NCBI GenBank assembly: GCA_000442015.1
Contig: KE561209.1
Location: 493,607-557,606, forward strand
DNA: 64,000 nt
Direction of reading: 5' to 3'
From: Rozella allomycis CSF55
Lineage: Eukaryota
Numbering within the stretch: the stretch's first letter is position 1; the number at the start of each line of letters is the position of its first letter. This document shows, piece after piece, positions 4,645 to 59,090 of this stretch. The notes under the pieces are model-generated. The model had not been told where the DNA came from. It worked only from the letters and a program-made list of their open reading frames with translations, and did no database searches. Made by a program: the position numbers and the translations under genes.

Positions 4645-4672
4645 TTTTCTTTGCAAATTTCTAAAAACGCTC

Positions 4673-5418
4673 ATGGAATTTCAACCAGAGAGAAAAAAGG
4701 TAAATGAATATATATATTTGAAAATGGGGCACTATACTTTACAGACCTATTCTCTATGGGTCAAAAGCGACACCCATAGAAAATCCGGCGGTGGACGGTC
4801 ACACGCATAGGTGGACTATTTTTGTAAGAACAGTGGTTCCAAATGAGGAAGCCGGATCTTTTATCAGAAAAGTAGTTTTTCGACTACATGAGTCATTTAA
4901 TAATCCTGTTAGAAGTACGTCATGAATCCATGCATTACCAAGGCATAGAAAAGGAGCCATTTGAAATCCAAGAAACAGGTAACTTCATCAAAGAAAAAAT
5001 AGAGGATGGGGTGAATTCGACATAAATATCAAAATATATCCTCTTGACCCTACAGAGAAACCAGTTAGTCTTACTTTACCATTAAAACTATTTCCAGGCG
5101 ACGATACAATAACTTTACCAGACTCCACTATATTAAATGAAAGGTAATTCAAAGTCATGTAATTAAAAATGGTACGAAGAGCTAGTTTTTCATGAGCCTA
5201 CGACATTTATGTATCAGATTCTTACAGAAGATTCAACTGAAGATTACTCATCACATTTGCCGAATGAATGTAATTTCTTTTCCATTTAATAATAAGGGAA
5301 GAAAAGGGAAGAGGACGAAATCCAAAACATACGATTAGTGATGAGCGAAGTAGAAAAAGAAATTAAAATTCTTGAACGTAAAAAGGAAGAATTACAAAGT
5401 GAGCTACGTATGCTATAA
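4673..5418 (+). CDS. YAF9: YEATS-domain protein (Yaf9/GAS41)
   Basis: RPILYG, HTHRWTIFVR, FIRKVVFRLHESF, PFEIQETGWGEF, YEELVFHEP and a C-terminal coiled coil; 5 introns, two with non-AG ends. Missed by the ORF track. Confidence 0.92.
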
Positions 5419-10747: not shown

Positions 10748-12960
10748 CTACTAACTCCGAATCAGGAGAAACTTTACCTGGAATTGAAGTTTGAAAATGA
10801 AGACGCTCGAGAAAACTTTCATTGTGTCAGGAACTTTCTATCTCAAGTTGCACAACGTGAAGAAGCACAAGCAAGAACAACTGAGTTGAGAAAGGCATGG
10901 AAAGCAGGNGCATCCAAGTGAGATCATTACCTTCTTAAAGAACAAATATGGAAGACGAGACCTACAACTACAAAACTCGCTGCGAATGAAGATAAACAAC
11001 CTCTATCAAGAAGAGAATGAACCATTAACGGATTCCCTGAGAAGATATGATGAAGTATACAATGAATTCAAGAATGTGGGAGGTAAGGCGATGGATTATG
11101 AACTTGTGAATATGCTGAATCAAACGCTACTAACTCCGAATCAGGAGAAACTTTACCTGGAATTGAAGTTTGAAAATGAAGACGCTCGAGAAAACTTTCA
11201 TTGTGTCAGGAACTTTCTATCTCAAGTTGCACAACGTGAAGAAGCACAAGCAAGAACAACTGAGTTGAGAAAGGCATGGAAAGCAGGTCAAACAACAATG
11301 CATCAACTAGAAACCAAGGAGGAAGACGATGTAGCAATGATTACGAAACAAGTGAAGTCAATGAACTTTAGGCGACAAAGCCAAAGGACGAAGAAACGAG
11401 ATGGTACACTGGAAGATGCTACGTATGCGATGAAACAGGACATCGTAAGTTTGATTGCCCACTTTGGAAGAAACTGACTGCCAAAGAAAATGGGAAGGCG
11501 AGGCGAGAAGCCAAACCAAAGGAACAAGCCAATATGGCCGATGAAGATTCATCAAGTGATGAAAGTGAGATTGCATTAATTATGCGAGACGATGAAGAAG
11601 AAAGAACCATGATGATTATTGAAAGTGAGAATGAATATGTTGAATGGATAGTGGATTCGGGTGCGACGTCACACATGTCATCACACCGTGAATTGTTCGA
11701 GAATAACGTTGAGAAGAAAAACGCAAGAAGCGTATCAACGGCGGGAACAGAAACTATGAAAATTGAAGGATCTGGAGAAATACCACTTCGAGTTAAGAAT
11801 AGCAAGGGAGAAATAAAAGAGGTTAGGTTATACAATGTTTTACATGTTCCTTCAATGAATTCAAATTTAATGTCTATACCAAAGTTGTTGAAAAACCCTG
11901 AAATCACCGTTATAATGGAACAGGAAATGTGTAGTGTGAGAAGACGTGAGTGTGAGATCATGAGAGGTAAGCTGGAGAGACAGCTATTCACGATAAAAAC
12001 AATGAAGCGTGAGACGCGAGCGCTAAATGTAAGCGAAAAGACGAATGAAATGGACATATGGCACCGACGATTGGGACATGTGTGCGAATCATATCTGAGA
12101 CAAATGAGTAAGATTGATGTGGTGGAAGGCATACCATTGTTCAAGGAAAATAAATCACTATCGTTTTGTCACACATGTGCGAAACATAAGGCTAGAAGGG
12201 CACCATTTAAGGGAGCCCTAGTAAGAGAAATGACAATTGGCGCCAAACTACATACAGACATAATGGGACCTATGGAGAAGGAGACAATATTAACAATGAT
12301 TGATGACCACTCGAGAAAATGTTTTATTCATTTGATACCCAAGAAGTCGGACGCTAAAGACAAAGTAACGTCATTGAAACAATCAACGAGATCGAAACTC
12401 AAACTGGAGAGAAAGTAAAAGAGATAAGAAGTGATACTGGTGGAGAATATCTTGACAAGGAATTTAAGAGGGAATTAAAAAAACGGGGCATCATTCACAC
12501 CACTACAGATGCTCACACCCCAGAAATGAACCCTGTCGCCGAGAGGATGAATAGAACAATAATTGAAAAAGTGAGATGTCTATTGGAGGATGGGAACCTA
12601 CCTAAAGAATTTTGGGGTGAGATGGCGAATACTGCATGTTACATTCAAAATAGAACACCCGCTAAAATTTTGGGCGGGAAAACCCCAGAGGAAATCTACA
12701 GCGGTACAAAACCGGACGTGAGTCATATGAGAGAGATTGGAAGCGCTTGTTATGTACACATCGACACGAGCAAGAGATCCAAGTTAGACGGGAAGGCGGA
12801 GATACATTACTTGGTAGGATACGGTCATGGTCACAGAATGTTCAGAGTACGTGTCGGGAAAACGAATAAAGTGAAAAGAACAAAACATGTTAGATTTATT
12901 GATGAGAACGAGGATGAAAATGAGGATGAGACGGAAGAAGTTGAATTCGAAAGGGTTATC
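10748..12960 (+). mobile_element. Truncated, frameshifted Ty1/copia retrotransposon (gag, protease, integrase; no RT or RNase H seen)
   Basis: Zinc knuckle CYVCDETGHRKFDC, WIVDSGATSHM, WHRRLGH, HTDIMGP, IRSDTGGEY, NPVAERMNRTI; protease-integrase order; frameshifts near 11370 and 12370. Confidence 0.93.
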
Positions 12961-13779
12961 TTGAAATCATCATTCTCCCGTACCAATAACAAAATTTCCC
13001 GCACCGTCACAAAATAAATTTCAACGCACCACCGCGGAAACAAGTAATTTGCCGCATTTCTCCGTTCCATCGTCTATTTCTCCGCACCATCGTCATATTT
13101 CTCTGCAAAACCTAGAAAACGCATAAGCAATCTTGGCCACGACTCTTACCTTTATATTTTTTGGAATATGTTTCGTTGTATGTGTGCCTTATTGTGAAGT
13201 TCTAGATATTCGATTTTTTCTCATATAATATCCCTAAATGCACCATAATTTCCATTTGTTGTGCCTCCCGTCGGATTATGCAAAGAGAGAAATGCTGAAT
13301 ATTTCGTTGGTGCAAGAGACCAACTAATATATGAGCTTAAGCTGCGCAGGATGAAGCGCGAAAATGATTTAAATCTTTAGAGTGCGGTGAAAACTCGGCA
13401 GAAAGAAAGTAAAGATATAACTTAATTATAACAACTTTTTGATTGTCGATGTGGTAACACTTGTTCTGTGGGGTACATGTTGGTCATTTGCAATTGCAAA
13501 AAGTTCCATTTTTACCGTAATGTAGAACAACATGACCGTCCGATAAAATGCACCTGAAGCGTTCGCAAGATTAAAGAAGACATTGTATTGTTCGTTCAAA
13601 ACGACCCCGTTGAGTCCAACCAAAAAATATGAAAACTATGGAAATTGAAAAACAACATGGAAGAATAGGACTTTATTTAAATCACAACAAATTAGTTCCT
13701 TGAAAAAAAGAGTAAAACGCAAGGTAGGCCACATCAATCTTGTTGTGTTTTTAAAAACGAAAACAATATCAAAAATCTT

Positions 13780-14340: not shown

Positions 14341-16508
14341 AAAGAATGGAAACCAGAAGTGCGGAAAGTTAAGACCTCGCAAACAAGAAACATGAGCTAT
14401 GCCTACGGTGAAAAAGACGCAAATGCTCCAAGACATCGTAAGAAGATTGTGCGAAGCCAGATTAAATAAAGTCTTTTACAGATTATGTTTTTTCTTTTGT
14501 TTCTAACGTTTCAACCTTATGGTTAACATATCATGTAAGCGGCCTTTCCTGAGTAGCTTAACACACCCCAAATCATAAGCCTGTATTTTCGTAAACCTTA
14601 AAAACGTCCCCAAGTGCAGTTATTGGCATGAAGACTGCCGTTAAACGTTGTGCCAACAACGGACTCATTTCCGATGTTTTCGATCCCATATATATTATTT
14701 GAACGATTGATTTAAGTTTTATGAACCTAAAAAAATAATGGGCACAATTACAGGAACACCTATTATGGTTTTCAATGACCACGTGATGGCTTGAATAATG
14801 CCAACTTTATGGCGTAATAATTAATATACCCGCGATTTTAACATGTGAAAGGTAATAAGTTGTCAATGTTCGTCTAGCGTTGAATCAAAACTCGGTATTT
14901 CAATTAAAAACATTTATTGACCTTTAACCAATATGTAGAGATTGGAAAAGCAATATGTTTACAAGTTGCTTTAATACAACGTCACTTGGCCCAAAGTCAT
15001 CCCACATAGATACTAAATATGTTTTGACATATTGTTTTATTAAGGTATTCTTGACCGGTTTTTGCAACGCTCGATTTCAAGATACAGCCGCATTAATAAA
15101 GGCTATTACCAGCAGACATAGCGAATAGGCCTCTTCCACGATACTAAAAAAACAGACGAGACAACAAAGGTCGTCAGCTTGTACAAGCCTCGACCAGTAA
15201 GATTTAGGTTGGAAATGCTAAGAGATTANGCGTAGCTTTAATCAAGATATGATTATCTGATTGACCCTTGCAAAAGACTTAAAGATATTTTCCTCATAAT
15301 TCCCTTCAATTAAGACATGATCTTCTTCATCATTAATATTACATTTAACGAGCATATCTGTGAGCCCTGCAACGAAAGGGTTACAACAACAATGGGAAAC
15401 TAGAATAAAAGAAGAGGCGTATATTGTTAAAATAAAACACAACAGAGTTTAAATAAGTAAATGAAATGAGAGGGGAATCAAAGTTGGATGAAAGTAGGAA
15501 GCTCGTTAGATTATCTTTGAAAAGGTACTCTATCTGAAAAGGGTTGCATTAAAAAATTTCACGAAGGTCGATACAGGATACTACGGCCTAATTCCTAGAT
15601 CGAAATCCAGTCGTTGACCGAATGCCTTTATTTCAATAGCTGGTGTACGGCCCGATTGATGTTTGCTGGGTAGAAACAAGGCATGTTACAATGGAAGTAT
15701 TGTATGCAGAAAAAGAAGGTGGCTCTTCATGCCTTCACGCGGCAAATCCATGCTGCGCCACGCTTGTCTGAAAAATGCTCTCTATCGCCTCAACAATTAA
15801 ATCCTGTCATCCCCGTACGTTAATAGCTTCTACAAGCTGTATGTCAAAGTTCCGATGGATTTATTTCTTCCCAGCCCCGTCGAAGGCCGTTTGGTGTCTC
15901 CACTTCCCTCGCTCTACTGGGACATCAATGTATGCGAAATTCTTACATCCGGGCTACGTGGCCTAAATCAACGTTGTTGCTGGATTCGATCCCGTCGCTC
16001 ATGTCTTTCTAGCCGCCTGCAGCCCCCCTGAAGCTGTAAAGCAACACTATATGCGTGTATTTTCTGATTGTGAGGCGGACGTAGAAGGACCAGACGCGCT
16101 AAGGCAAAGTTCGACAAGAATTCCAACAAGTCGCTCTGGCTTAACTTCACTCATCCCGTGACTGTAAGAGTCATGTCTTCTCCGCCTGAATCCCTTTATG
16201 ACTCCTCGCAGTCCGCAAGACTGCTGATGGACCAATCCATGGGAATCTGTCTCACAAGAGCTTCTCACGAGCGCTTTCTTTCATGCGTGTCGCTCCATGC
16301 GCTCATAGAACCTTAATCCTCGTAAATCGGATAGTANCTTTTACCGTTCACTGCCGGACCTCAAATAGAAAAATTTAAAAAAATTGATCGTTGCAAAGTA
16401 TGAGATCGTTCAAAGTCACGATGAAAGTTGATCAGTTTTCAAAAAGATCTAAATAATAAAATCTAAATTTAAATAATATTAAATAATTTTTTATTCTTAC
16501 TTAAAAAT

Positions 16509-16746
16509 AATCATTGTAAGTTTCTATGGTCATCATCAAAAATATTTTTGAAATTTCCAAATTAGGATTTTCTTCATGAAACAGTATTTAAATAAAAAAT
16601 CAACTTATAATTAAACGTATTATTTTAATTAAATTTATCTAAATTGTTTTTTTAATCATTGTAATTTTCTATTCTCATCATCAAAAATATTTTTGAAATT
16701 TCAAAGTTAAGATTTTCTTCATTAAAAAGTATTTAATTAAAAAACC
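16509..16746. repeat. Two diverged AT-rich direct repeats about 145 bp apart
   Basis: aatcattgtaa...catcatcaaaaatatttttgaaattt...ttttcttcat at ~16509 and ~16654. Confidence 0.85.
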
Positions 16747-16794
16747 GTTTGTATTAAACAAATAATAATACTTATTATTTTAAAGTTTATTTTN

Positions 16795-18190: not shown

Positions 18191-20179
18191 TTCAACTAGT
18201 TTTTCTCTTTCAGGATTTTCTAGTCCTTGATTTTTTTTCTTAACATTAATTAAAATTTATAATGTTACAGTAAAGGAGGTTGACATTATTTTATCCAGCT
18301 CAATGAACATTGACAAATAATCGTCAATAGGAATTCCTTCTTTAGAAAACTCTGGCTCCGAATTTTCGATAGATTTTCAACATAGTTTCTCTTCGCACAG
18401 GCCCATAGAGATAATAAATAAGGAAGAGAAAATTTGTCAAGGTATTTTGAAAAAACAAAAAGGCATTCTTTAAAAGTCATTATATAATATTACTATCGGA
18501 TAATNAAACATTGACAAATATTCGTCAATAGGAATTCCTTCTTTAGAAAACTCTGGCTCCAGTATTTTAGATAGAGCTTCAATATAGTTTCTCTTCTCAA
18601 AGGCCCATAGAGATAATAAATAATGAAGAGAAAATTTATCAAGGTATTGTAAAAATACAAAAAGGCATTCTTTAAAAGTCATTATATAATATTACTATCA
18701 GATAATTCCAGTCCTCTTATAAATTTAGCTGTTGCATAAGCGTATCGCAAAATGATTTCAGAAACAATTTTCAAGGTTGCATGACCAACCCTGGTCCTTA
18801 AAATAGTTACCCAAAATTCAATTCCATCGTGGTCCTCAATGAGTTGGACAAATTCGTTTGATGGTAAATCGTGAAAACTTTTTTAAATATAAAATACACT
18901 TACAGTAAATGCTTGATTGTCAAAGCAATGCATTCAGCCTCTGGTGATTCTATAACGTTTATTAGCAAGCCTTTTAGTGAACACAATGACAAATTAAGAC
19001 TTATCTTATTCTTTTTACGAATTTACTATTCTGGTATTTGAATGCCATCGTTGTGCCAAAACAATAAATGGAACATTTTAGCGGCTTGCTTCCAAAGGCA
19101 AGGGGTATTTATTTTCGAGCAAACCATAAAATCAATCATTTCAACAAATGTCCTTTGAAAGAATTTAGAACAAAATTCGTCTGCATTTAAGTCCTTTTCA
19201 AGAGATGTATATTTCAGTTCCTTACTGTTTATTAAATAACAATGCACAAATGAATTCAGTAACAGGTCGAAAGCGTAGTTGTTTTTACCAGGGTGGTTTA
19301 GTAATTCGAAAAATATTAGCTTTAAAGCGTTAATGTCGTCCATCGAATGAGAAATTAAAGTGTCTATCATAATCAGTTATGAAAAAATGATATTCATTAC
19401 TTTAATCAAAATAGAGATTGATTCTTTGATGGAAACATCTTCTTTCAAGGTATCTAACACCTTTTCTAATATTCTTCAACGTCGTACCTTGTTAACATCA
19501 ACTTCAATCTTTTTCTGCTCAGAATAATAAATAATGAATTTCAATGGTCTGTAATTTTTTGGATGCAAGTATTCTGATCCCTTGTCCAATTTCTTGGTCA
19601 TAAAAGTTTCCAACAAATAAGAGAGGTCCTGAGAATTCAATTGCAATGAAATTTCATCTATGAATGGTTTATATGATTATCCAGTACCTTTTCCCGAAAT
19701 TATTTCTTGATTGTTAAATTGTGGAAGAGAAAGAAAGTTAGTGGTATTCATTTCAAGCCTTCCTTCTTTCCTCTCGTTATTAAAAGAATTGATGAATGTT
19801 TCATTACAACAATCACCAGTGTTAATTTTTTCCAGGGCCTTCTCACAAATGCTCTCTAATTGATCCATTAGCTATTAAATAAACAACAATTTAAATACCG
19901 ATAATACATGAACACTTTTTGATATCATCTTCATGGACCCGGCAAAGGTCTTATATTCATGTATAACTCTTTCTGATGGTAAAAACGCATTCAAAGTATT
20001 GGTAATGACTCTAACCGATCGCTCAACAACAAATTCTTGGGTCACATCTTTTATAAGATGCTTGAACATTAAATTGTACACTGAAATCAGCATTCCTTAT
20101 GCTTACCTTGGTCTCTAGTCTCAACCGGATGCAGCAAATTTATCAGCTTATTTCCTAGATCTAATTGACTTCCACGCAT
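18191..20179 (-). CDS. 5' part of a large uncharacterised helical protein gene
   Basis: ATG at 20179 and mini-introns linking ORFs in frame; continues in 9928-10746; one exon is present twice around the N at 18505. Confidence 0.65.
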
Positions 20180-24029: not shown

Positions 24030-26010
24030 AATGGAATGCGAGACCAAATTGACAGAGAATCTACAGATGATGAAATTTGAAGATCATTTTTGGGTATTAT
24101 TGTTATAATTTATAGATTAGGGTGAAAATCTTGAAGGATACCAGATATTACATAACAAAGGCGAAGCAAGTTTGAAATCCATGAAAGAACTTATTAATTT
24201 TTTGTCTCAAAGGTACTATATACAGTTTAATTATATTTGAATTTTGGCTGAAGAAGAATCGTGCAAGGCATTTACGAGAATCGCGACTAGCTTTAATCAC
24301 CTTGGTGCAGAGGAGGACGAGTAAGCGCGTTACAGTTGGAATACAAGAACTTTAAAAGTAGTTTTGGAAAAAGTTATTAATGCACATGAAACACTTGCAA
24401 GAACACATTACCAAATGGTTGCAAAAATGCGAGATGAAGTTGTGGGCCCGCTGGTGTCATATCGCAAGTCTCAGAAATCTATGATTAAAATGGTAATCGA
24501 TAATAATCTTGGAAATAAGTATGATGTAGAAATGGAAAAGCTTTCCAAAAATGTCCGGTATGAACTTGGTAACGTCGAAAGAGTAAAAGTATGATATATC
24601 TTTACATAGTGCCAAAGATGTTATCAAGACAAGTTTAGGCAGTATAAAGAAGCGGTTGAAAAAACTAAGGGGGGAGACTTGACCAAAAGAGAAAAAGTAA
24701 GTATTTCCTTCACGTTAGAAAGTTATTGGAAAAAGAAAACAAAGCTAAAATAGATTTGGAAAAAGCAGGTTCGTTTATAGAAAAGTTTTAATACAGAAAC
24801 AGAATACAAGACGGCGATTGACATTCATAATGTTGTTATTGATAAAAGAGACGGTCTAATGCACCAATTTCAAAAAGTAAGCAGCCAAAATAATAAAGAT
24901 AGACATTACAGGAAATGGAATTTGAGAGAATCAAATGTATAAAGACTACACTTACCAATTTTGCCGATTGTCAGGAAAGTTTGCTTGGAAGCTTTTCAGG
25001 AAAAGTAAAAAATGCCTTAAGATTTGAGAGATGTATATAAAAATGAAGGATACAATAGAAATGATTAATCCATTATCTGATATAAATAGTTTTATCACAA
25101 AATACAAAACATCGTCATCGAGACCACCTAGACTGAAAATGGATCTACTAGGACCATCAACAATCATCGACTCTCCTTTGGAACTTCAATCAAGAGAAAG
25201 AACAAAGAGCTTCTATGGTACATTAAAACTGCCTAGTAAAAATAACAAAATGAAGAGTTCACTGTGGTTCAACAAAAAACATGAGGATCCATTTCATACA
25301 TCGAATCAAAAAATTCAAGGAATTTTCCCAGAAAATGTAGTGCCAGAGAAAGACAGACCTCCCTCTGTGGTCACAATGTCTGCTGAAGAAACAATTGACA
25401 TCGCAGTTGATGAAAGGATTCATAATGGAATACCTATTATTGAAAAATCAAAGACACCATTGGCGCGCAGCGATTCCCCTTCACGCAACGATGATATTAA
25501 AGTCTCTGATGACAAAATGAAAAATGAATGTGCCGTTGAAACCACAAATCAGATTATCGAAAAGAAAGAAAATAGAATCATCGAAGATTTTTCCAACATT
25601 AATGTTTCTAGTTTAGTTGATAAAATTGAGAGAGACAAAACTGTGGCTTCTTACGATAAAACCAAGGTAAGAATGATAAAGTTTAAATAATTTTGAAAAC
25701 ATTTTCTAGAAAGTCAATAAAAATGGAGGGATGGTTGACAACTAGTGAAGAACCTTTCAGCGAGTCTTTCAGGAGGTGGTGCACCCTAGAAGGAGGGTAT
25801 ATTTGGTTCTTTGAAGAAAAGGAAACAGATAACACGAATCTAAAACCAAAGTCAATGGTTTCTATCAACCGGGCAACTTTGACAGAAGGAATCAGCCCGC
25901 TCTTTCTTAATGTTAAATTGGACACGTTACATACATTTAGTTTAATATCCACAAGGCGAAAGCTTGTTTTACGTGCTGATACTGAAGGATGCATGGATAC
26001 AAACTATTAA
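24030..26010 (+). CDS. F-BAR protein with a C-terminal PH-like domain
   Basis: FEDHFWGENLEGYQIL, FLSQRILAEEE, QEMEFERI; C-terminal MEGWL...FRRWCTLEGGYIWFF. Confidence 0.8.
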
Positions 26011-35643: not shown

Positions 35644-36285
35644 TTATTTATCACATTGAGTTTCTGAATCTTTAACATTTAGTGATTTCCCATCTTGGCT
35701 AGTTCGTTTGTTCTTCATGTCTTTCAATCTTTGAATGAATTTCAAAATCTCAATTGAGCCTTTTGTATTTGGATGAAAACACCAAATTAAGAAAATTGCT
35801 TTTATGAGGGAATAAAATGGCAATGATTTAACTACTGATCCAAAAATTTGCTCTATCATGTTAATGCCGCCATGTACCAGCCAGTATGCCAGAAGTACTC
35901 TATATTTCATTGGGATAGCGTGATCATTTAATAACAACAGGTAAGTCTGCCGCGCTGCGTACCCATATCCCAACATTTGCGAAGAAGAGTAAGCGATGTT
36001 TTGAATTAATGAACTTATGACTATTGTCATAGATGCTGCGATTAAGGCCACCCAAATTTTTGTAGATATACCCGTGTTCTTTTCTAACAAACTGAGAATG
36101 TTTCCGATTCGATACTTTACTTCCAAATGAGAAATTAAAGGTTCGATGGATTTTTTCAGTGCGTTAAATGTGGGCAAAAGGCGTTCTGGGCATGCGTTTT
36201 CGATTTTGGAAAAGACGTTCTTAATCATTTCCGTTTCATTTGTTTCATTTTGATGGTTTTGGCCATCTTGAATTTCATGGTCCAT
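35644..36285 (-). CDS. REEP/Yop1/HVA22-family ER membrane protein
   Basis: LAYWLVHG, LPFYSLIKAIFLIWCFHPNTKGS. Confidence 0.82.
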   Translation of the reverse strand: MDHEIQDGQNHQNETNETEMIKNVFSKIENACPERLLPTFNALKKSIEPLISHLEVKYRIGNILSLLEKNTGISTKIWVALIAASMTIVISSLIQNIAYSSSQMLGYGYAARQTYLLLLNDHAIPMKYRVLLAYWLVHGGINMIEQIFGSVVKSLPFYSLIKAIFLIWCFHPNTKGSIEILKFIQRLKDMKNKRTSQDGKSLNVKDSETQCDK

Positions 36286-36348
36286 TTTGCGGGGATTTTA
36301 TTTCATAGTTACAAGATATTCATGAAATTTCTCTTTCAAAAATTATAA

Positions 36349-38440
36349 ATGACTACAGTCCTTTGTGAATTAATTTCGTTGAATGAATTTACCATAAAGG
36401 ACGATAGGTCGCTTTTCAAAATCTTTACTGGAGTTCAAGGACATAAATACAGTAGTCATATATGTTTGTCTTTATATCATTAGATGGCAAAGAAAAGGAG
36501 TGGATCTTTCCTTTAAAAGAATATCATAGTGTTCTAGAACAGGTTAAAAAAGAAAAACCAAACTTACTGTACAGAGAAATACCAAAGTTGCTTTTGGACA
36601 CTTTTCTATCACTCAAACCACTTCCACATGTTGATATAAATAAAACAAATATCCCAAAGACTTTGTTGCAAAAGCTTATGCCATTTCAGATAGAGGGAGT
36701 TCGATACTCAATTCAGAAGCAGGGCAAAATTGCAATATGTGACCAAATGGGGCTTGGTAAATCGGTTCAGGGTAAAAAGATCTTTATTTTGTTAAACTAG
36801 CGCTTGCTGTTGCGCTTCATTATAAACGTGAGTGGCCATTATTAATCATATCTCCATCTTCTCTGCTTAGCACATGGGAACAAGTATAATTTGTCGTAAT
36901 TAAGCATAGATGATTAAAGATTGGGTTTCAATGCCGGTTGAAGTTGGGGTAATTTATGAAAGCAAAAATGCGTCCTTTGATTCTGAACAAATTTATGTTA
37001 TAAGTTATGATTTGGCAGTTAAATTATCTGATAAAGTTGCTAAAAAGAAATTCGAAGTGATTATCGTAGTAATCTATGAATCATGATCCATAATTTCAAG
37101 GATGAGTGTCATTATCTAAAAAATGCCAATACAAAGAGGACAAAGACTCTATTACCAATAATACAGAAAGCAGAGAGGAGAATTTTACTGTCTGGAACTC
37201 CCGCGTTATCTAGACCGATGGAATTATTTACTCAACTTCAAATAATCCAGCCAGCGTTATTTAAGAATTTTTTTGATTATGGGGCGCGATATTGTGCAGC
37301 CTTTAAAGTAATTAGCATAGTATTTAAAGAGAGTCACATTTTGGATGGAATTTTAAAGGTGCTTCTAATGTTAGAGAGCTACAAGTTATTTTAGAAAACT
37401 TGTTCATGATCAGACGATTGAAAGACCAGGTTTTGTCGCAGCTTCCACCTAAAAGACGCCAACAAGTAAATTGATTAAATATTTTTGATATGATTTTTCT
37501 GCATCTGGAAAGAAAAGATTTGAATAAAATATCAAAGAGGAAAGATTACCCAAAATCACAAACGCTAGAGAGTTTACTAAATTCCAAAAATGGCCTAGAG
37601 TCTGAAATTAATGATAATTCATTATTGACATCATGGAAAGAAACAGCAGCAGCAAAGTTGCCATCAATGATTAATTATGTGGAAGGTTTAGTTGAATCTG
37701 GACACAAATTACTCCTTTTTGCTCATCATCGTGACATAATGGATGAATTTGAGAAACGGATTATAGAAAAGGTAAAAACAGTGCTTTTGCTTTAATAGAA
37801 AATAAATTACATTAGGATTGATGGATCAACCGCGACAAATTCTAGGTTTGCTAAATGTGATGAATTTCAAAAGAAGGAAGACATTAAAGTTGCTCTTCTC
37901 AGCATAACTGCTGCTAGCGTCGGTTTAACTTTGACAAGTGCCACAACTGTAGTGTTTGCTGAATTGTATTGGAACCCCGGTGTAAATTTGCAACATCATA
38001 ATGAAATAGGTTTTGGTTCAAGCTGAAGACAGAGCTCGTAGAATAGGCCAAAAAGATTCCGTTAATGTTCACTTTTTACTCGCAAAAGGCACCCTGGATG
38101 ACATATTTTGGTAATTTCATGAAAATATCTTTAAAGGCCTCTGATTCTTAAAAAATTAGACATCCTGGAAAGCGTTGGTCTATCCAAAAATGAGTTTGCA
38201 TTAACCACTCAAGTAGAAATAGATGAAAAAGGTCAGCAGCATTCCAATAAACGAAAAGCGAGTTTCGACAAGTCGATTAAAGACTACTTTGTCAAGAAAC
38301 CTCTCGAAACAATCGAATTATCTAGCGACTCTCCAAAGTGCAATGAAATAGAATTAATAACAGATGACAGCGACTTTGAAATTGACCAAGAGACTTTAAG
38401 AATACTTGACGAAATGGATAAGAAAGTTGTAAATCAATAA
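36349..38440 (+). CDS. SMARCAL1: SMARCAL1/HARP annealing helicase (SNF2 family)
   Basis: [68 protein letters not shown]. Confidence 0.92.
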
Positions 38441-38474
38441 AATTTGTATTTAACTACTACAGACTATCGTCAAT

Positions 38475-38785
38475 CTATTTCTTCGGAAGTTCAAACTTTT
38501 GTATTGTTTCCCAGACCATCAGGATATTCTCATACACTGCGTTGGAAGCTATTCTCAACATTCTAACAGTGTTGGATTTAAATTTTCTATCGGTGTATAT
38601 AGTTGTTTAAAATTACATATGGAGTACATTGTTGTTAGTTGACATTCCTCGTTGAATCTCATTGGTCTTCAACTCTTTATCTACATTTACCACTTTACAA
38701 ACTATATCGGCATGTTCACTTTTTTCAAAAGGTATCTCGATATTTCTATCTTGGCAAAATTAAAGAAAAGTTACAATTCAAACAT
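38475..38785 (-). CDS. PCC1: KEOPS subunit Pcc1/LAGE3
   Basis: Spliced MFELNIEIPFEKSEHADIVCKVVNVDKEL...FKSNTVRMLRIASNAVYENILMVWETIQKF; missed by the ORF track. Confidence 0.8.
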
Positions 38786-38841
38786 AGACCACAAACGACA
38801 AAAGTTTTGGCGATTCAGCCACTCAAAAGTCAAAATTTAAG

Positions 38842-40113
38842 TTACAATTTATTATTACAGATATATACACCAATATCCAATCTTTTGCTAAATGTTGGTA
38901 GTTTTCTTTCGAGGTTATCGTATTGACAAGAGATCTCTTCGCTTGTCTCATCAATCACAATGCGTTCAACCTTACACTTTAGTTTTCTCTCCAACGTTTC
39001 CACCAAATCTTTTATTCGAATGCTACTTACAAATATATTTAAGACCATCTTGTCCAATCCATTTAATACACGCGCCCTTACTCTAATGGATTGAATACCA
39101 TTTGATAAACTCTTCCTTAGGCTGTTCTCTTTATAGCTGCTACAATGATTCGGCACCAAAATGTGATCGGCACTTGGACGTCTTCCTGCATTTAAATAGG
39201 TTTGGGATCCTGTTGAAGGAAGGTCAAAAGAATCTATTTCGTTCGCGATTCTTATATCTTCCTCACGAAGATCAAAGAAGGTACCAAATTCAAAACTTAA
39301 ATTATTTTTTTCGGCCAAAACAGCAAGATTTTGAAGAATCATTTGCAAGGACTTAAGGTGCTGGTCTTCTAACCCACTAAAGCATGCGTTAATAGAACTA
39401 TTTGATACATTGCATTTTTCCAAAAAGGATTTAATCTCAAATCTGTCTCTGTATATATAATAAGACTTCAATGCATTATCGATTCTGCAACGATAAAACG
39501 AGCTTGAATTTAGAGTCAATGACGTTTCAACTGTTACTTTTTCGATATTTTGAGATTTGTTGGGCTCAATGAATGTCAAATCAAAGTTCGGAGGCAAGCA
39601 TTGGATTTCAACAACATAATGATCTACCCACTTAATATAACGGTCCCGAAGACGAAGAATTTGGTAACCTCTTTCCGATTGATCGGTTATTTTCACGATT
39701 TCACCTTCATTTAAATTGGATACTGTCCCTTTAACGTTATAGAGAACCATTCCGTACACAGGAAAGGGTTTTTCAGAATACTTTTCAACTCCACATTTGT
39801 ATGACTTGGGATAGTTGTAACCAATCTCTTGTTCAATTTCAAAATAATTCTGTAAGGGCTCGATGAAATCCTTCGAAATAGTTCCGCAAATTTTCGATAT
39901 AGGGTTTACAAATACAAGATTCTCTTCTTCTTTCAAAAATACATCGATAATCTGGCCTTTATGAGCGTCAGATACATCCTTTTTAACCACACAACGGTGG
40001 ACTTTTTGCATCTCTCCTGTGGTTTGAGAAGGACCCCCTGGAAACCTATCTTGTCTAAAAATAGGCCCCGCGCCTAAAAAAATAAACAAAACATGAATAG
40101 GGAAGTAAAACAA
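38842..40113 (-). CDS. Divergent Bem1/Scd2-like scaffold (SH3-SH3-PX-PB1-like); real start may be the ATG near 40011
   Basis: Long intronless ORF; SH3-like KVHR...NPISKICGTISKDFIE and PVYGMVLY...VVEI, PX-like YYIYRDRFE, PB1-like SIRVRARV...DLVETLERKL. Confidence 0.5.
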   Translation of the reverse strand: MFYFPIHVLFIFLGAGPIFRQDRFPGGPSQTTGEMQKVHRCVVKKDVSDAHKGQIIDVFLKEEENLVFVNPISKICGTISKDFIEPLQNYFEIEQEIGYNYPKSYKCGVEKYSEKPFPVYGMVLYNVKGTVSNLNEGEIVKITDQSERGYQILRLRDRYIKWVDHYVVEIQCLPPNFDLTFIEPNKSQNIEKVTVETSLTLNSSSFYRCRIDNALKSYYIYRDRFEIKSFLEKCNVSNSSINACFSGLEDQHLKSLQMILQNLAVLAEKNNLSFEFGTFFDLREEDIRIANEIDSFDLPSTGSQTYLNAGRRPSADHILVPNHCSSYKENSLRKSLSNGIQSIRVRARVLNGLDKMVLNIFVSSIRIKDLVETLERKLKCKVERIVIDETSEEISCQYDNLERKLPTFSKRLDIGVYICNNKL

Positions 40114-40146
40114 AAATCAAGAACTTTGAAGAAGATTTTTTAGATT

Positions 40147-41135
<989 letters not shown>

Positions 41136-41204
41136 AGTTTGGGAAATTTCAATTATCGAATGGATGGCGCAAGGAACTATAGTAAATCAAATTAGATTTA
41201 TTTT

Positions 41205-42218
41205 CTACTTACAAAACGGATATTTATATTTCCTCGACGATACAGTGTCGCAAAATAACTTTCTCATTAATTCTCTTTCTTTGACGTAATGTGCCGTTAT
41301 TAAGGATCTAATTTCGGAAGATAAGATTCGTCTTGACGTTTCTAAACGATTAAAAGGAAGATAATAATTAAAATAAGGGCTATGAACCTTGGTGATACCA
41401 AATTTGTACATGCAATAAGAAATGGTCAAATCATTGGCCCCCTTATAAGGGCACTTCCACGAATAGAAACTTGGAACCATTTTTATAAGAGCTGGTCCAG
41501 AAATTATAATTCCAGCACCCCCGCTATAAAACGCTATATCTTTTTGATATTCTTTGTCCCAAACATGACCTGAAAATGTATAAATATATCAATGGTTACC
41601 GAATGATATAAGCAATCTATGATCGTATCTATTCAGATGTAGGATTAGATTCTCTACGTTTACAAATGTGTCATCATCCACCAACATGATCCATTTGAAT
41701 TTCTCTAAGAATCCTTTTTTACTTTGAAATAACCATTGAAGCCCTTTAATTTGACGGTGTTGAGCGTCTTCGAATGATGACTTGCCTTTTAACTCCTCTA
41801 AACTGATCATTCCCAGATCCTCAATTTGTTCATCTGCAAATATATAGACTTGCGATACTAGGCTAAGCCAAGTTTCCCTTAATGCTCTCGTCCTGTCTTC
41901 AAACTTCTTCGATCCCATCACCACGAATAAGATGTCATTTTCAAATAATGGCTCTTTCGGCTGTCCAAACTCGGAAATCATGCTTTCCAGACTCAATTGA
42001 GTAATATATGATAGGCATGAACTTCTGGCAACTTTGTACAATACTTCATTCACTTCATTAACAGATTTCGGGGCTCTATTCTCTTGTAATTCAGTGGGTA
42101 TCATTGATATTTGAATCACTGTAGGATTTTCAAAGTAGAAATAGTAACCAAAAATTACAACTGCAAATATACACGACGATAAAATTAAATTCCTTGACAA
42201 TGATTTTGCCTTCAACAT
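41205..42218 (-). CDS. Fringe-like GT31 glycosyltransferase
   Basis: Type II TM anchor, RETWL, KWIMLVDDDTFVNVENL, GGAG, ANDLTISYC, TAHYV. Confidence 0.85.
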
Positions 42219-42323
42219 TTACAAAAATTCATTTCCTAGTTAGAATTCCTTCCTTTATTCCCTCAAACAAATGAACATCATAAATCATGTTTTGAAATCT
42301 ATTTCTCCATAGCCACAGCGTAC

Positions 42324-44340
42324 ATGTCAACAAATCCATTATTTTATTATTCCATACCGTTTATTGAACCACAGTCAGATTTCAATGAATGGACACAGCA
42401 TAAAATACAGGAAGGCGGAAGGTCTTTCTTTGGAAAGGTGTATTTCCAGGAAACTAGGCAGAGGCATGTGTTACCATTGACATGCATTTGGAACAAATCT
42501 CTTGAAAATCACGGATTTGTGCTTATTCCAGCTGACCGATTAAAGAAATTAGAGGAATGGGAACCGATTGCGCAATCATTAAAAAGAGTGAAGCATAGCG
42601 TAAATGGATTATGGATTGGTAGTTCTTGGTTGGATGCTCATCGCTACAAATTATTTATAGGTACGATTAAAATATACATAAATCAGGCGCAGAATCACAC
42701 AAAGGCAATGACTTATCATTTGAAGGTAAAACCATGCTGGAGAGAATGAAAAAAATGTTGGCAAAACAAAGATTATCAAACGTAACAAATGAAATTCCAT
42801 GGATTATGATGCGCTCCTCCCAATTGGTTGTCAGCAAGTAAGGCCCTATATTTTCTCAATATTGATCAATTCAACGAGCGTTTACTTCAGGTTTGACACT
42901 CAAGACATTAATGCTGAATGGTATACCTTTTAACAATCAGTCACTTGAAAATATAGCAATAGTAAAATATGGTCTGTAACATTAGAGGCTNTAATGGGAT
43001 ACCTTTCAACAATCAATCACTTGAAAATATAGCAATAGTAAAATATGGTCTGTAACATTAGAGGCTATAACTGATGCAAAACATTTGGAAGTACTTTCCT
43101 TTAGTAGAGCTGAAATCGGTGATCAGGGACTTAAAGGTAAATCTACAATTATCTTCTAAACAAGTTATCGCTTCATCAATAAAGAATTCCAACACATTGA
43201 AGTGGGTTGATTTATCTCAGTGCCAATTGACTGACTCTTCTGTGATTTATATTCATGACATACTTACAGTAATGATACGTGATCTAAATTACAGCATCAA
43301 AGTGCCATACTCCATTCCGACATGTGGAAAACCTCATTGAGGGCTGTCTATAGGGTGAACCAAAAAGAGACCAATTTAAAGCCATTGCGTAATGAAAAAG
43401 GTATTAAAAGACTGAATCTTTCTTGTAATCACTTTACTGATGAACTTTTGTCAATGCTTTTGAGTATTTTGGAGGATTCATTGGTTGTTGAAGGTATCAG
43501 GTGCAGTTTCACCCTAATAAAGCTCTTGAAGTTCAATTTAATGAATTCTCTGCAGATAAAATTCAAGAGATTCAAACTTTTCTTCTAAACAATAAGCATG
43601 ACTTGATTATGTTCGACATACGAAACAACACCGGCTACACTTTGGAAGACTACAATACTTTAAAGAAACATATTAATCCTTCCTTACCAGCAATTTTGGT
43701 AACTCTATTACCCTAATTTTATAGAGGTGGAAAGAGCTTGACCCAGAAGATCCTTTGGCTATAACTTACTGGAATGACAAGCCCATATTAAACGGAATTA
43801 AATCTGCATCAAACCCTAAACTTAAGAAGATCCCCAAAGTGAAACCTGTAGTAAAAGCAAAAGATATCGCAGGGAAGAACAAAATTATTCAATTAGCGAG
43901 GTCGCAAACTCCAAAAAAAGATACGTCACATAAAAGCAAATCAAATAGAACAAATACCTTTGAAAACAAATTAGTGGTCCGCAGTAGATTTACCAAAATA
44001 AGGGAAGATTCTCAAAGCGACGATAATTTGCCTCCTCTTCAAGATCGAATTTCAGAAATTAATGATATAAAAGTTAATTCTGCAAGCGGTTTCACAAAAG
44101 ATACGAATTTGCAAAATGTGGAGATTTTCAACGAGTTATTTGATGATTGTGTTCTGAAAAATTGTTTCAAAAAGCTTACAATTGATCGTCCAATTATAAA
44201 TGATCCTGACATTATAGATACTTTAAATCGAGGAGATGAGGGCAGTTATAAAAAGAGTTCATCATCCACTGATTACAACTTTATCACAGCTGCGATAGAG
44301 AAGTATACACTAAATAAATGCTTTACTTAGTTTACTTTAG
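42324..44340 (+). CDS. CEP78: Centrosomal LRR protein, CEP78-like
   Basis: ADRLKKLEEWEPIAQSLK, LKTLMLNGI, IGDQGLK, MWKTSLR, GIKRLNLSCN, FDIRNN follow the CEP78 motif order; ~75 bp duplicated at the N at 42992. Confidence 0.72.
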
Positions 44341-44406
44341 TTAAAAATTTGTACTCTGAGCGGAGATTAATGTAAGTCAAAGCCACAAACATAACAATTA
44401 ATTGGC

Positions 44407-45785
<1,379 letters not shown>

Positions 45786-45817
45786 ATGATGGAATTTAAT
45801 TGGGTTTAAAACTTTTA

Positions 45818-47696
45818 TTAATAGCGTCTTTGACCATAAGATCCATTATAATTGTAGTGTTCTCCAGGGCCACCAGAGCCACCATAGTCATAATCGTTTC
45901 TATTATCGTTTGTATGTTGATGCATCCTATGATCATTCCTTTGATTTCCGCTTCTTTGGCTTCTATCATAAGGTTGGCGATTATACTGCTGTTGACCGTA
46001 CTGCTGCTGTTGAGAGTTACGGTTATATCCAGAGCCTGGATTGCGTTGCTGCATCCCTTGTCTGCCCCTACCTTTGTCCATTCTGCCTTTTCGTCCTCGA
46101 TGTTCAAAACCTTTCATATCAATATCTGTTTGGTGCTCTTGACCCATACCGGGTATAACATCTGATTGGTAATATTCTTTGTGTTAATTGAAATTTACGA
46201 GGCTTACCTTGAGGCATTTTTTGCTGAGGTGGTGGTGGCTGTTGTTGAATGAGTTGATCATCTTCGATTGAAAGACCCATGGCGGCGGCAGTCTCTTTAC
46301 CTAAAATATATCGATCTTGCATCGTATCTTGTGGTCTATGTCTCGCCCAAAATCGAGCGCAATGATCGTTACTTCCAGACACGAGTAAATGACCCACAGG
46401 GTGCCTATTATTCAAACAGCTAAATATATACCAATCTAATGTCCATATAGCTTGGTCATGTGCTTCCTCTAATACCCCAACAGGCTTATCAAGACTAATT
46501 AAGATGACAATGTATAAATTACCCAACCAACCATGTCAAAATAGAACCGTCAGAGCCACTGGTACAAAATAGAGATTCATGAACTGGGTGCCATCTCAAG
46601 GCTTATTAAATATATCACTTATCATTTACCATTAACTTCTTTCTTATGCCCTTTAAAGGATTGCATCTCTTTCATCATTCTTATGTCATACAGTTTGACT
46701 GCCTGATCACGTCCGACAGTCAACAGCCAGTTTCCGTTCTTATTCCACTTCAAATCAAATATTGTATTTTTATGACCATGTCTATATCAAAAACCGAACT
46801 TTGCTTTTACAGCGTAGTCAAATTACATCCAGACTTTGGATCCCAAAGCTTTAATAAATTATCTTTACTTCCTGATGCCAGGAGTGATTTAGTTGGATGC
46901 CAATCTAAACATTTCACATCCCATCCGTGACCAGTTAGTGTTCTTTCTTCCAAAGCATCGTTAAAGGACCAAATTTTAATTGTTCCATCATCTGAACAAG
47001 AAGCAAATTTGGAATCTGAAGGGGAAAAGGTTAAAGCGCGAACAGGATCTTTATGTGCGTTTATTTGCTTGATGTTATTTAAATTTGGCTGCCAGTATTT
47101 AATGATACCAGTATGATCGGCTGATATTAGTATGTTGCCGCTATGTGACCATTCCATACATCTGACAGCAGAATCATGAGCCTAAGTTATTACTCTTCAA
47201 TATAAAGTACTTGTAAAATTGTCTCAAAGTTGAATGTGAATCCATTCCATAATGTAAATTCACCAGAAGCACAACCTGTTATCAGTCTCCTGCCTTCTGG
47301 GTTCCACTTTGTAATATATTTAAATCCGTGTTACTCTCACAACGTTGACGGGACATCTAACTTTATTGACAGAAGTATGGATGTATCTTGTGCATACTGC
47401 GTTTATAGGCTCATCCTCATATACTGATGGTGGAAGCATCTATATCTTGATGGTATTAGCGATTTTACATTCATTAGGTAGGTAGAGTCATTTAGAACCG
47501 GTGGATAATCTACAGCGGATTTGCAAACTAGACGATTCTCGTAAAAAACTATTTATTATTTTACTTCAATCCAATTAGCTAAATCGGACATATAATCTAT
47601 GGTTCGCCTTTGAATGGCTTCTCTTATTCTTTTCCCGTCAAAAACCAATTTTGGGACGATGTACCTAGCGTTCCCCTCTCCAGTTGTTTTTATCAT
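45818..47696 (-). CDS. PFS2: Polyadenylation factor Pfs2/WDR33
   Basis: [57 protein letters not shown]; low-complexity G/R/Q/N tail. Confidence 0.93.
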
Positions 47697-47895
47697 GGAA
47701 AATTGTTTCCAGAAATTTCAGATCCATAAAAAGAAAATCCACGATTCGAATAAACAAAAAACATTTATTAAATTTTACAGTTAATTATTATTGTTAACAT
47801 TGCAACTATAATGTCATTTCAATTTCACGATGGAGTGGCTTGACAAATTCACACTTTTAAAATCATATGACTCGCTCTTCCCCTGGTCAAAACTT

Positions 47896-49661
47896 ATGTC
47901 AAGTAATTTTTGTAGGTTTTATTCAAAAGGAATATACATTGATCTTGTTAAAGGCAGTGATGATACTGGAAAAGGGACTGAAGCCTCACCCTATCTTTCT
48001 CTTTTGAAGGCATTGGAATTGAACACTTCCGCTTCCGATGATTCTTTTGCTGTTAAAAAGGATGAAAGTGGGGAATATGAACCTGCTTCAAAGTCTGCAC
48101 TGAAAAAAGCAAAAAGTGCTTTAGAAGCAAAAGAAAAGAAGGCCAAGAAATTGGCAGAAAAGGCCGAGGAGCAAAAAGTAAGCGAATAAGGTCTATAACA
48201 TAAAGGCTGCTGATGCGCAAAAAATGGAAGAAGAAATGGCTAGATTGGAACTAGCAAAGTCAATTAAGATTGAAGAAGATGCATCTTTGCCACAAGCGAA
48301 ATTAATTAAGCTTAGAGACACTGTTGCTAACCGTAGTCATAGAGTGAGAGTGAAAGGATGGGTTCATCGTTTAAGAACTCAAGGAAAGTCTTTAATGTTT
48401 GTTGTTTTGAGAGATGGGACTGGATTTTTGCAATGTGTGTTGAATGATAAATTATGTCAAACATATGATGCGATTACTTTGACTAGAGAATCAACAATAG
48501 AAGTGTTTGGAACTCTAAAGCTTGTTCCAGAAGGCAAAACTGCACCTGATGGACATGAATTGATAGTTGATTATTGGAAAGTGATTCATAAAGCCCCTGG
48601 TGGTTTGGATGCATTTGAAAACAAATTTAATACCGAGTCAGATCCTAGTGTGCTATTGGATCAACGCCATTTGGTTCTTCGTGAGGACAAAACGACGAAA
48701 ATTCTTAAACTTCGCTCAGCCATTCTCTTTGCGTTTCGTCAACATTTTTTTGAAAATGGATATTTTGAAGTTACCCCACCATGCCTTGTTCAAACACAAG
48801 TTGAAGGAGGATCAACACTCTTTCATTTGCAATACTACGGTCAACCAGCCTATTTAACTCAATCATCTCAACTTTATTTGGAAGCTGCATGCCCTGCCCT
48901 TGGAGATGTTTTTTGTATTCAAGAATCATTTAGAGCTGAAAAGTCAAGCACTCGCCGCCATCTTTCTGAATACACCCACTTGGAAGCTGAATGCCCATTC
49001 ATTTCTTTTGATCAACTTTTAGATCGCTTAGAATTCTTAATCACTGACGTTGTTGACAGAATAACAACTGGACCTTTCAAGGAAATGTTTTATGAAATGA
49101 ACCCTGGATTTGTGGCTCCAAAGAAACCTTTCCGTAGAATGCGCTACGTTGAAGCCATCCAATGGTTAAATGAACATGGAGTTCTCAAGAAAGACGATGA
49201 TGGAAATGAAGTTGGTCCTTTTGAATTTGGAGATGTAATTTATTTATTTCTTGTTTAATTAGGACATTCCTGAAGCCCCTGAAAGATTGATGACTGACAC
49301 TATCAACGAGCCAATCATGTTGTGTGAATTCCCCGCTGAAATTAAATCATTCTACATGCCACGTTGTTCCCACGATAACCGTGTTACTGAATCTGTTGAT
49401 ATCCTCATGCCTGGAGTTGGTGAAATTGTTGGTGGCTCTATGCGTATCTGGGATCTTCAAGAACTCATGGCTGGCTACAAGCGTGAAGAAATTGATCCAT
49501 CTCCTTACTACTGGTTCACCGATCAGCGCAAATACGGCTCTTACCCACATGGTGGATATGGTCTCGGTGTTGAACGTTTTCTTGCTTGGCTCTTGAACTT
49601 GGATCACGTTAGAGAAACTTGTCTCTTCCCTCGTCATTATGGTCGTCCATGCCAACCTTAA
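47896..49661 (+). CDS. DED81: Cytosolic asparaginyl-tRNA synthetase
   Basis: [65 protein letters not shown]. Confidence 0.95.
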
Positions 49662-49744
49662 ATAAATCTCATCTTTACCTTAAAGCTTTCTTGATTTATT
49701 TCATTTCTCAGTACTTTTTTCTTGATATTTCCTTTTTCAGACTC

Positions 49745-50298
49745 ATGATCTTTTCAACCCTAAGGAAATATTCTACACCCTTTATAACATTTCTGCTGGT
49801 TACATATCTGCTGTATTTTTGGAAGAAAAGAAAGTCCCTTCCGAAAGATAATACTCGAAAACTCAAACCAAGAAAGAAAATTACCATAGTTGCAAATAAT
49901 GTACTTGATTTAATATCATTTAATTGTAGGTATTATTAGATTCTAATCTTAATTCTATTCATGACAACTTGCGCCATATCGAGACTTTATTAGACAACAA
50001 TTTTGACGTGTATATTATATGCTTAATCGATAACATATCAAAAGAAATAATTGTGAGAAATGAACTATGTGCACTTTCTATAGAGCCACACAAGTTACTC
50101 TTTTGTTCTACACGCGAAGGAATAGTTGACATCGCCCGCCACATTAACCCGTTATGCCACATAGACACATTTATTGAAAATAGTAGATACATTTGTAGAT
50201 TTATTCCCGAAAATATACTCATTTCAGATCAAGACAATAAAGAATCTGGTTTCATCACATATCCATCAATTGAACATATCCACTTGGTAAAAAAGTAA
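49745..50298 (+). CDS. Pex22-like peroxin (N-terminal TM)
   Basis: TM followed by a basic stretch; FDVYIIC, HKLLFCSTREG, RHINPLCHID resemble the plant PEX22 motif KVLFCST...RQLEP.WHID. Confidence 0.65.
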
Positions 50299-50338
50299 CT
50301 AATAAATAATGATCAATATCCTAAATCATTTATTTTGG

Positions 50339-50940
50339 TTATATGGCCGCTCTGAATGCTGCTGTTCCAGCCCCTCCCAGTGTTTTGCTGTTTAATTTAG
50401 ACATTGCTGATTACCTGGATGTGGGATCTTCTTTTTTCAACAAAGCAATCAAATAAAATATTCCTGTAATGGACAAAAACACAGCGGAAACTACAAATTC
50501 TGAAAGTTGTACGACCCAATACAATACTGCACAAGCAATGTAGAAAATGGTTCTATATAAGGGTTTGGACGCAGTCTGCAAAAAGTTTCGTCTATTAAAC
50601 AATAATCAATTAGATTACAGTGGACCACCTTCACGAAAACATTTCATAAACAATGGAATTTCTAAACTAAGAACAATGACTCCTAGAACACTATTAATCA
50701 GCCAACAAATACATTACACAGAGACCACAGCAAATACTATAGCACCTGCTTTACTGAAATTGAATAAATTGGCTATCCCAGTGGCAAATATAACTATCAT
50801 GCATAAATCCAATGTATTTTACTGATTCCGGTTATGATAGCAGCCCTAATTAATTAAATAAATAATTCTTATTACCACTGACCGTAAACTGCAAACTTTC
50901 CTGACCTAACTTCCTCCTTGAACGAATCCCAAACACTCAT
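50339..50940 (-). CDS. TVP18: Golgi membrane protein Tvp18-like
   Basis: FKEEVRSGKFAVYGQW, LEIPLFMKC, C-terminal SKTLGG; 5 mini-introns. Confidence 0.75.
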
Positions 50941-51205
50941 TTTGTGGCGCAGATTCCTGTACCAATCTTATCATTGTTCCACTACAATTAAACATGGCAA
51001 ACATTAAATATCCCATCGTCTAATTGTACATTTATTCAACAAAACTATTCAATGACAATAAAGCTACACAACTAAGCGTTAGCATTTCCCGCCGTTTCGT
51101 TTCACTGAGTTGGTATATTCATAATCTAAAAATTAGAATTTGATTATATGAATAATATATGAATTTTGTTGTGTGAATTTTATTTTAGATCGGCAATTTT
51201 ACGAA

Positions 51206-52159: not shown

Positions 52160-52160
52160 T

Positions 52161-53324: not shown

Positions 53325-53390
53325 TATTGAAATTTCCAAAAGGTAAATAATTCCCTTTTTAGATCCCAAAAAAGGATTAAACAAGTCAAT

Positions 53391-55375: not shown

Positions 55376-55492
55376 GATTGCGTGAAATTCTAATAAACAA
55401 ACCCCGGTGTATTAAAATTACAAAATTGTTTACAGCATTGTAAATATTAGAGATTAATCATATTTAAATATAATTTATTAATGGGTTATGCA

Positions 55493-59024: not shown

Positions 59025-59090
59025 TATTGAAATTTCCAAAAGGTAAATAATTCCCTTTTTAGATCCCAAAAAAGGATTAAACAAGTCAAT

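Follow-up and report, generated by a model that had tools for sequence, protein, structure and literature searches.

Predicted GG and TG intron ends in a YAF9-type gene of Rozella allomycis, and a candidate class of micro-introns without a terminal AG

Few signals in eukaryotic genes are as fixed as the AG that closes an intron, and TG, GG or CG ends (together BG, where B is any base but A) are known either as rare alternatives or from mistakes made by mutant spliceosomes. Tunicates reportedly have non-GT/AG splicing. Yeast without Prp18 resembles Rozella in using B-G ends with GT donors and the major spliceosome, and in the sections of the study cited here UGG, AUG, UUG and ACG are among the most-used ends of the prp18-null strain, with slippage to a G one base off (PMC10711555). 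Human U2-type introns can have a TG acceptor, as in Rozella; in the account drawn on here these come from 36 genes, are never the sole site and always stand in tandem with an AG (PMC2374985). The ultra-short introns of myxobolids and Dicyema, at 22-27 nt, share GTa donors and intact U2 and U2AF with the introns described below, as well as weak A's that lie farther from the AG the longer the intron (PMC13644364, main text, which makes no mention of non-canonical acceptors or of Rozella). GT-GG, GT-TG and GT-CG introns occur in a fungus too, Ganoderma lingzhi, where together they make up ~0.09% of sites and are no commoner than GT-AC or GT-AA (PMC11590231, in the portion used). BG introns in Malassezia were looked for in PMC5389616 and not found in the portion used here, and a literature search, mostly of non-subscription main texts, found no publication on non-AG acceptors in Rozella.

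We analysed 64,000 nucleotides of the R. allomycis CSF55 assembly (contig KE561209.1, positions 493,607 to 557,606; hereafter the window). An asparaginyl-tRNA synthetase exon in it shares 98% identity with an R. allomycis protein at NCBI, ahead of 66% for the second-best match. A sequence-only reading of this DNA had proposed that a YAF9 gene needs two non-canonical acceptors, GG and TG. The gene is modelled as follows:

4673..4699, + strand: exon 1 of the YAF9/GAS41-type gene, start ATG 4673 (sequence, homolog profile)
4700..4727, + strand: intron 1, 28 nt, GT..TGG, predicted GG acceptor, A at position 23 (4722) (gene model, posterior 1.0)
4728..4914, + strand: exon 2, N-terminal half of the YEATS domain (PF03366 match; PDB YEATS4/Yaf9, E ~1e-12)
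4915..4942, + strand: intron 2, 28 nt, GT-AG (homolog profile, gene model)
4943..4978, + strand: exon 3 (homolog profile)
4979..5004, + strand: intron 3, 26 nt, GT-AG, with an unused AG at position 23-24 (frame scan, homolog profile)
5005..5143, + strand: exon 4 (PF03366, homolog profile)
5144..5171, + strand: intron 4, 28 nt, GT..ATG, predicted TG acceptor, A at position 23 (5166) (gene model, posterior 0.99)
5172..5269, + strand: exon 5 (homolog profile, alignment)
5270..5296, + strand: intron 5, 27 nt, GT-AG (homolog profile, gene model)
5297..5418, + strand: exon 6, ending in TAA (open reading frame, homolog profile)

The product has a YEATS domain with a GAS41-type N-terminal strand and a C-terminal EEL strand, which places it in the YAF9/GAS41 family, and the best PDB matches of exon 2 are YEATS4 and Yaf9, above AF9/ENL. 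All five introns are 26-28 nt long; introns 2, 3 and 5 have AG ends, and the model with GG and TG at introns 1 and 4 gives a single open frame of 202 residues. None of the window's 12 single N falls in the gene. We place the start at ATG 4673 because the upstream ATGs at 4622 and 4634 would overlap a facing gene on the - strand (ATG 4644), which we take to be prefoldin-like. The two start codons are separated by 28 nt (4645-4672), so both promoters and 5' UTRs must overlap. Two homolog searches returned no public Rozella YAF9 protein of at least 119 residues (three candidates in one, best identity 60% in the other), exact look-up of three exon translations found 0/3, and an exact 27-base exon-2 pattern had 0 matches in metagenome contigs.

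Read directly from the sequence, the proposed end of intron 1 is GG (4726-4727) and that of intron 4 is TG (5170-5171). When intron lengths of 15-80 nt were scanned, AGs were found at lengths 45, 68 and 80 from the donor at 4700 and at 36, 38, 42, 53 and 74 from the donor at 5144, none of them in frame; a tandem TG-AG site of the human type was rejected for both introns, since neither has an in-frame AG within 80 nt. The sequence-only reading had noted that the next AG at intron 1 is out of frame, which is true of every AG in that range, and that the exon-2 frame has a TGA and no ATG, both of which we see (TGA at 4719-4721; no Met in the frame, 4722-4925). U12-type introns have an extended RTATCCTT donor and a strong branch site; introns 1 and 4, each 28 nt with donors GTAAAT and GTAATT, have no U12 motif.

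A profile was built from 37 homologs of 185-280 residues, out of 150 YEATS hits, and 294 splice models of the gene were scored on it blind to the dinucleotides. The top-scoring model is the one with GG and TG, at 224.3 bits. For intron 4, the runner-up in-frame end reaches 218.6 bits, the best single canonical model 192.2 (73 scored) and the best double canonical model 188.5 (14 scored), which leaves the TG end 32 bits above any AG model; that intron 4 ends in TG is very likely. For intron 1, the runner-up in-frame end stands at 221.9 bits, 2.4 below the GG model, and the best canonical model at 216.7 (172 scored) uses a 16-nt GC-AG intron, the leading canonical models all needing GC donors. 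The margin for the GG end, 2-8 bits, is weak. An alignment to Yaf9/GAS41 orthologues, which the sequence-only reading had put forward as a check, sets R-x-K-G-x-x-x-x-x-P-I-x-Y-G and E-x-Y-[DE]-E in register with both junctions, and the colinearity with GAS41 that it had claimed for a cut after GG agrees with the best model, if by a small margin. It had overlooked an out-of-frame TG at 4725-4726, one base before the GG, and a run of four G at 4726-4729; a TG end at position 27 of the intron would yield a 36-residue product. The small margin, the G run and the skipped TG make intron 1 the weaker case, in which a GG end is probable. Reading the intron as a shifted GG..TG, with the same mRNA, was rejected because GG donors have 0.3 expected counts of ~1190. 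Intron 4 would use TG and pass over a GG one base later, intron 1 would do the reverse, and we found no rule covering the choice of end in both. On the best reading, YAF9 makes its protein only if introns 1 and 4 end in GG and TG.

We fitted a two-strand gene model by EM to 657 kb (60 stretches of the 11.86-Mb genome plus window positions 1-57000, including 63,586 N bases), starting with all 15 non-AG ends weighted equally. At posterior 0.5 the first model called 1045 AG, 31 TG, 8 CG, 8 GG and 23 other ends; a refined model, which left out introns with an N within 60 bases, called 1014 AG, 29 TG, 8 CG, 6 GG and 18 other (n=1075) and, at posterior 0.9, 904 AG, 23 BG and 1 other (n=928). TG is the commonest non-AG end. 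The window alone has 176 predicted introns (168 AG, 6 TG, 1 GG, 1 TT), among them these calls of the gene model:

24213..24239, + strand: predicted GT-TG intron, 27 nt, in a gene other than YAF9 (posterior 0.99)
25667..25695, + strand: predicted GT-TG intron, 29 nt (posterior 0.91)
37466..37492, + strand: predicted GT-TG intron, 27 nt (posterior 0.95)
40349..40374, - strand: predicted GT-TG intron, 26 nt (posterior 0.87)
19374..19400, - strand: predicted GT-TG intron, 27 nt (posterior 0.92)

Elsewhere in the window, three AT-rich predicted introns at 16427-16785 share sequence and are 139, 128 and 57 nt long, unusual beside introns of 26-31 nt. Positions 10890-13017 hold the remains of a retroelement with a repeated segment and broken frames, presumably Copia-like from gag knuckle, protease and integrase motifs. 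A 5.7-kb tandem duplicate at 51301-62700 is 99.4% identical, and arose either by recent copying or from two alleles that the assembly placed one after the other. One RNA run, compared with window positions 36001-56000, yielded short foreign pieces and no splice junctions, and so speaks neither for nor against splicing.

Reading frame served as a control on the BG ends. With non-AG ends fixed at background frequencies, 31 of 929 confident donors had no in-frame AG at 20-40 nt, and an in-frame BG at 26-29 nt followed 19 of these 31, against 9 of 62 off-frame controls (p 7.7e-6); a flat prior gave 20/27 against 9/54. There was no such excess of non-G ends in frame over off frame (A 15/31 vs 21/62, C 5 vs 6, T 8 vs 33), and 12 of the 31 AG-less donors also lack an in-frame G end, so that they are left without an explanation. 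When the model could use any donor, its 994 introns at posterior 0.8 comprise 949 GT-AG, 24 GT-TG, 7 GT-CG and 4 GT-GG, the remainder being 2 GT-AA, 1 GC-AG, 1 CT-AG and 6 other. Single-base splice variants in this set number 35 at position -2, 2 at -1 and 1 each at donor +1 and +2. Not every call of the gene model is right: one GG call proves to be AG at 26, one CG call is one base off, one TG call looks to us like coding sequence, and some predicted ends, including many non-G calls, we take from their translations to lie in retroelement fragments or to be misparses. Given the GG call that proved to be AG and the TG call that seems coding, the true BG share is probably nearer 2.5-3.5%. It is highly likely, though a shade less so than the TG end of intron 4, that a genome-wide BG class of introns exists. 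In the same 657-kb sample GC donors are rare (3 of ~1065 at posterior 0.5, any donor allowed), and A fills donor position +3 in 95-98%, so that the donor is stricter than the acceptor; five AA-AG calls (posterior at least 0.5, any donor allowed; genome stretches L027, L048, L049, L045 and L017) are probably noise.

Homology could be brought to bear on three more genes, taken from the 43 BG calls for having bacterial homologs, with 80 loci each. We take them, from their motifs, to be HMG-CoA-lyase-like (HMGCL-like), NADP-IDH-like (IDH-like) and D2HGDH-like. With the two YAF9 junctions and five more, two of these GG, homology prefers the G end at 7/7 tested junctions. The HMGCL-like gene has a GG end at 28 nt (137.0 bits vs 130.5 for an AG at 25 nt; 65 models), and 77 of 80 bacterial homologs run from PQ straight to M/L, against the extra Trp that the AG end would add; its TG end at 27 nt scores 209.2 vs 198.5 (25 models). 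The IDH-like junction had been called CG at 29 by the gene model, and homology places it at GG at 30 nt (202.0 vs 196.9, best AG 180.3; 58 models). The D2HGDH-like gene has TG ends at 28 nt (294.1 vs 288.6; 94 models) and 26 nt (294.1 vs 289.0; 47 models), so that YAF9, the HMGCL-like and the D2HGDH-like gene carry two BG introns apiece. CG ends are gene-model predictions, the five extra homology junctions being TG or GG. The HMGCL-like and IDH-like GG ends have the YGG layout of YAF9 intron 1, with the YG one base upstream skipped. The idea that GG widens the rule beyond TG leaned, within YAF9 alone, on the weaker junction; these two unrelated genes add GG ends fixed by homology, and CG ends are predicted as well.

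The intron lengths learned by the model narrowed to 26-31 nt, and 26 nt is a sharp floor: of 1045 AG calls, one has 25 nt and five have 20-22 nt. Position 23 is A in 86, 73, 65, 73 and 68% of AG introns of 26, 27, 28, 29 and 30 nt (n=229, 242, 229, 125 and 44), in 41% of those of 31 nt (n=22) and in 76% of BG introns (n=41). Its frequency across lengths 26-30 suggests that this A is anchored to the donor and not to the acceptor; a weak T at position 21 accompanies it. U2 snRNA keeps GUAGUA. A23 is the putative branch point. Splicing is predicted at the first AG from position 26 onwards in 891 of 898 introns, and in 152 introns an AG at 20-25 is passed over; both rules, on length and on the first AG, are partly built into the model that found these introns. 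Any AG at 26-31 nt is present in only 2 of 42 BG introns. We reject a strict 'first G' rule, since positions 26 to L-3 show no depletion of G (31/308 vs 12.9%, p 0.17) and 36 of 938 introns pass over a G. Since G is not avoided upstream of the AGs used, AG would be preferred and BG a fallback. The shortest introns are no richer in BG ends than others, which leaves a link to minimal branch distance unsupported.

In the explanation that we consider likely, introns 1 and 4 of YAF9, whose splicing we infer, would be ordinary U2-type micro-introns in which the sole usable 3' splice site is BG. The spliceosome would measure from the donor, with a presumed branch A near 23, a minimum of 26 nt and a reach of ~31 nt; the first AG in the 26-31 window would be taken and, if there is none, another G would dock. 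Such a donor ruler with a BG fallback is something we lean towards, with rather less assurance than the explanation itself. In the yeast P complex, as described in the part of the report used here, the first and last G of the intron pair with each other, and A(-2) has its partner in the branch A (10.1101/212811). A BG end would keep the former pairing and lose only the latter. A YG is followed by an exon G in 15 of 42 BG calls, and the second G appears to be used in YAF9 intron 1 and in the HMGCL-like and IDH-like genes; this choice between adjacent Gs in both directions predicts mixed junctions, an imprecision whose wrong products would presumably be destroyed by NMD. A bolder proposal, that AG-independent ligation is routine, with the branch point placed by a count of ~23 bases from the donor, a G 3-8 later, imprecise choice of G and permission from a remodelled Prp18 loop in hundreds of introns of conserved genes, is speculative and in our view unlikely; 'several hundred' BG-dependent introns is an extrapolation from 2.5-4%.

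Several other accounts of these ends have to be weighed. The BG class could be real and one G of the four-G run at YAF9 intron 1 still a mistake of assembly; a run of three would leave either a 27-nt GT-TG intron, with the protein unchanged, or a stretch that is read through in frame. Such a slip would fit the run itself, the TG at position 27, the small homology margin and the predominance of TG among non-AG ends, but the YGG layout is fixed by homology in the HMGCL-like and IDH-like genes, where there is no G4 run, and YAF9 is free of N, so we rate it as improbable. Less probable still is that all non-AG ends are sequencing errors or one heterozygous allele, the true or other allele having AG. 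Every non-AG end is one base from AG, and variants or errors do occur in the sequence, as public records of the same proteins differ at ~1% of residues (2/331 and 5/569) and the tandem duplicate by 0.6%. Errors or drift would be expected to hit all four splice positions, however, and heterozygosity too would not give variation confined to position -2 (35 against 2, 1 and 1). At -2, T dominates, though A-to-G, the commoner change, would be expected more often, and three genes would each have to be hit twice. The chance that the introns are broken or poorly spliced, in genes that are decaying or giving shortened proteins via canonical sites, seems slighter again. The 16-nt GC-AG alternative in YAF9 (216.7 bits), the 25-nt AG end of the HMGCL-like gene with its one added Trp (130.5 vs 137.0) and a 22-nt AG end in the D2HGDH-like gene offer such sites. 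These alternatives fall under the 26-nt floor and insert into gap-free motifs, the best canonical model of intron 4 loses the conserved EEL strand (32 bits), and the coding parts have no stops. The 994-intron comparison thus upholds the view of the sequence-only reading that error or pseudogene explanations are the less likely ones.

The splicing machinery offers a further candidate. U6 snRNA keeps ACAGAGA, as U2 keeps its own motif, and a U1 candidate with ACUUACCUG scores 69 bits against a cut-off of 69.5, YAF9 introns 1 and 4 having GTAA donors. U2AF2-like and U2AF1-like genes, as we name them partly from motifs, look intact; Slu7, Fyv6 and Prp18 are all present, and a genome search found no loss of Slu7, Fyv6, U2AF1 or U2AF2. 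Beside the separate U2AF1-like gene (L324) there is a presumed ZRSR2-like gene (L058 1-450 and L057 9300-10000, - strand), both named from motifs, which hints at parts of a minor spliceosome. The Prp8 alpha-finger region is 66/70 identical to human and keeps the Gln, and the beta-finger is identical; this Gln reads position -3, according to the portion of PMC12707134 cited here. A low-fidelity class due to Prp18 loss or to the Prp8 fingers, as in prp18-null or Prp8 Q1594A spliceosomes, was rejected, as Prp18 is present and the fingers are conserved. It is possible, though doubtful, that a diverged Prp18 loop and not geometry alone causes the tolerance of BG ends, which would add to the explanation above. 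Compared with yeast, the loop has one added residue, TSVGIH becoming MGPINLN, and the His is gone; both public Prp18 records carry this divergence. In the sections cited, yeast loop mutants relax -2/-1 fidelity (PMC10711555) and human Prp18 H289 is in contact with the 3' site once that has docked (10.64898/2026.08.05.741260), yeast H203 being equated with this residue from spacing. Against this, the comparison covers two sequences, the loop of chain 9if7_SD is also longer and diverged with the His kept, and prp18 loss also activates non-G ends, of which the Rozella sample has no excess. A Prp18 query found no relative in metagenome contigs. The two public records differ from each other at two adjacent residues (ND vs SF), where five bases between short inverted arms (L066, ~1631-1643) look like a micro-inversion in one sequence.

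If the BG micro-intron explanation is right, R. allomycis would be a wild organism with a few percent of introns that depend on BG alone in a genome with ordinary U2AF, Prp8 fingers and snRNAs, and could serve as an experiment of nature on what keeps A(-2) in place and how the spliceosome measures distance. With ~3 introns per gene, gene models restricted to AG would be wrong in about one in ten genes of this much-used early-branching genome, and such errors bear on claims of gene loss in Rozella. The BG ends of prp18-null yeast, as reported in the part of PMC10711555 cited, are cryptic sites used beside a normal YAG in a mutant, whereas those of Rozella would be the only productive sites in a wild genome that encodes Prp18. 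Unlike the human TG sites, 40 of the 42 BG introns have no AG at 26-31 nt, and GG and CG ends occur too. The introns of myxobolids and Dicyema, in the main text of PMC13644364, are described with AG ends, in contrast to the BG ends of Rozella. And where Ganoderma lingzhi has a trace of such sites, Rozella appears to have 2.5-4% BG introns, specific for the final G.
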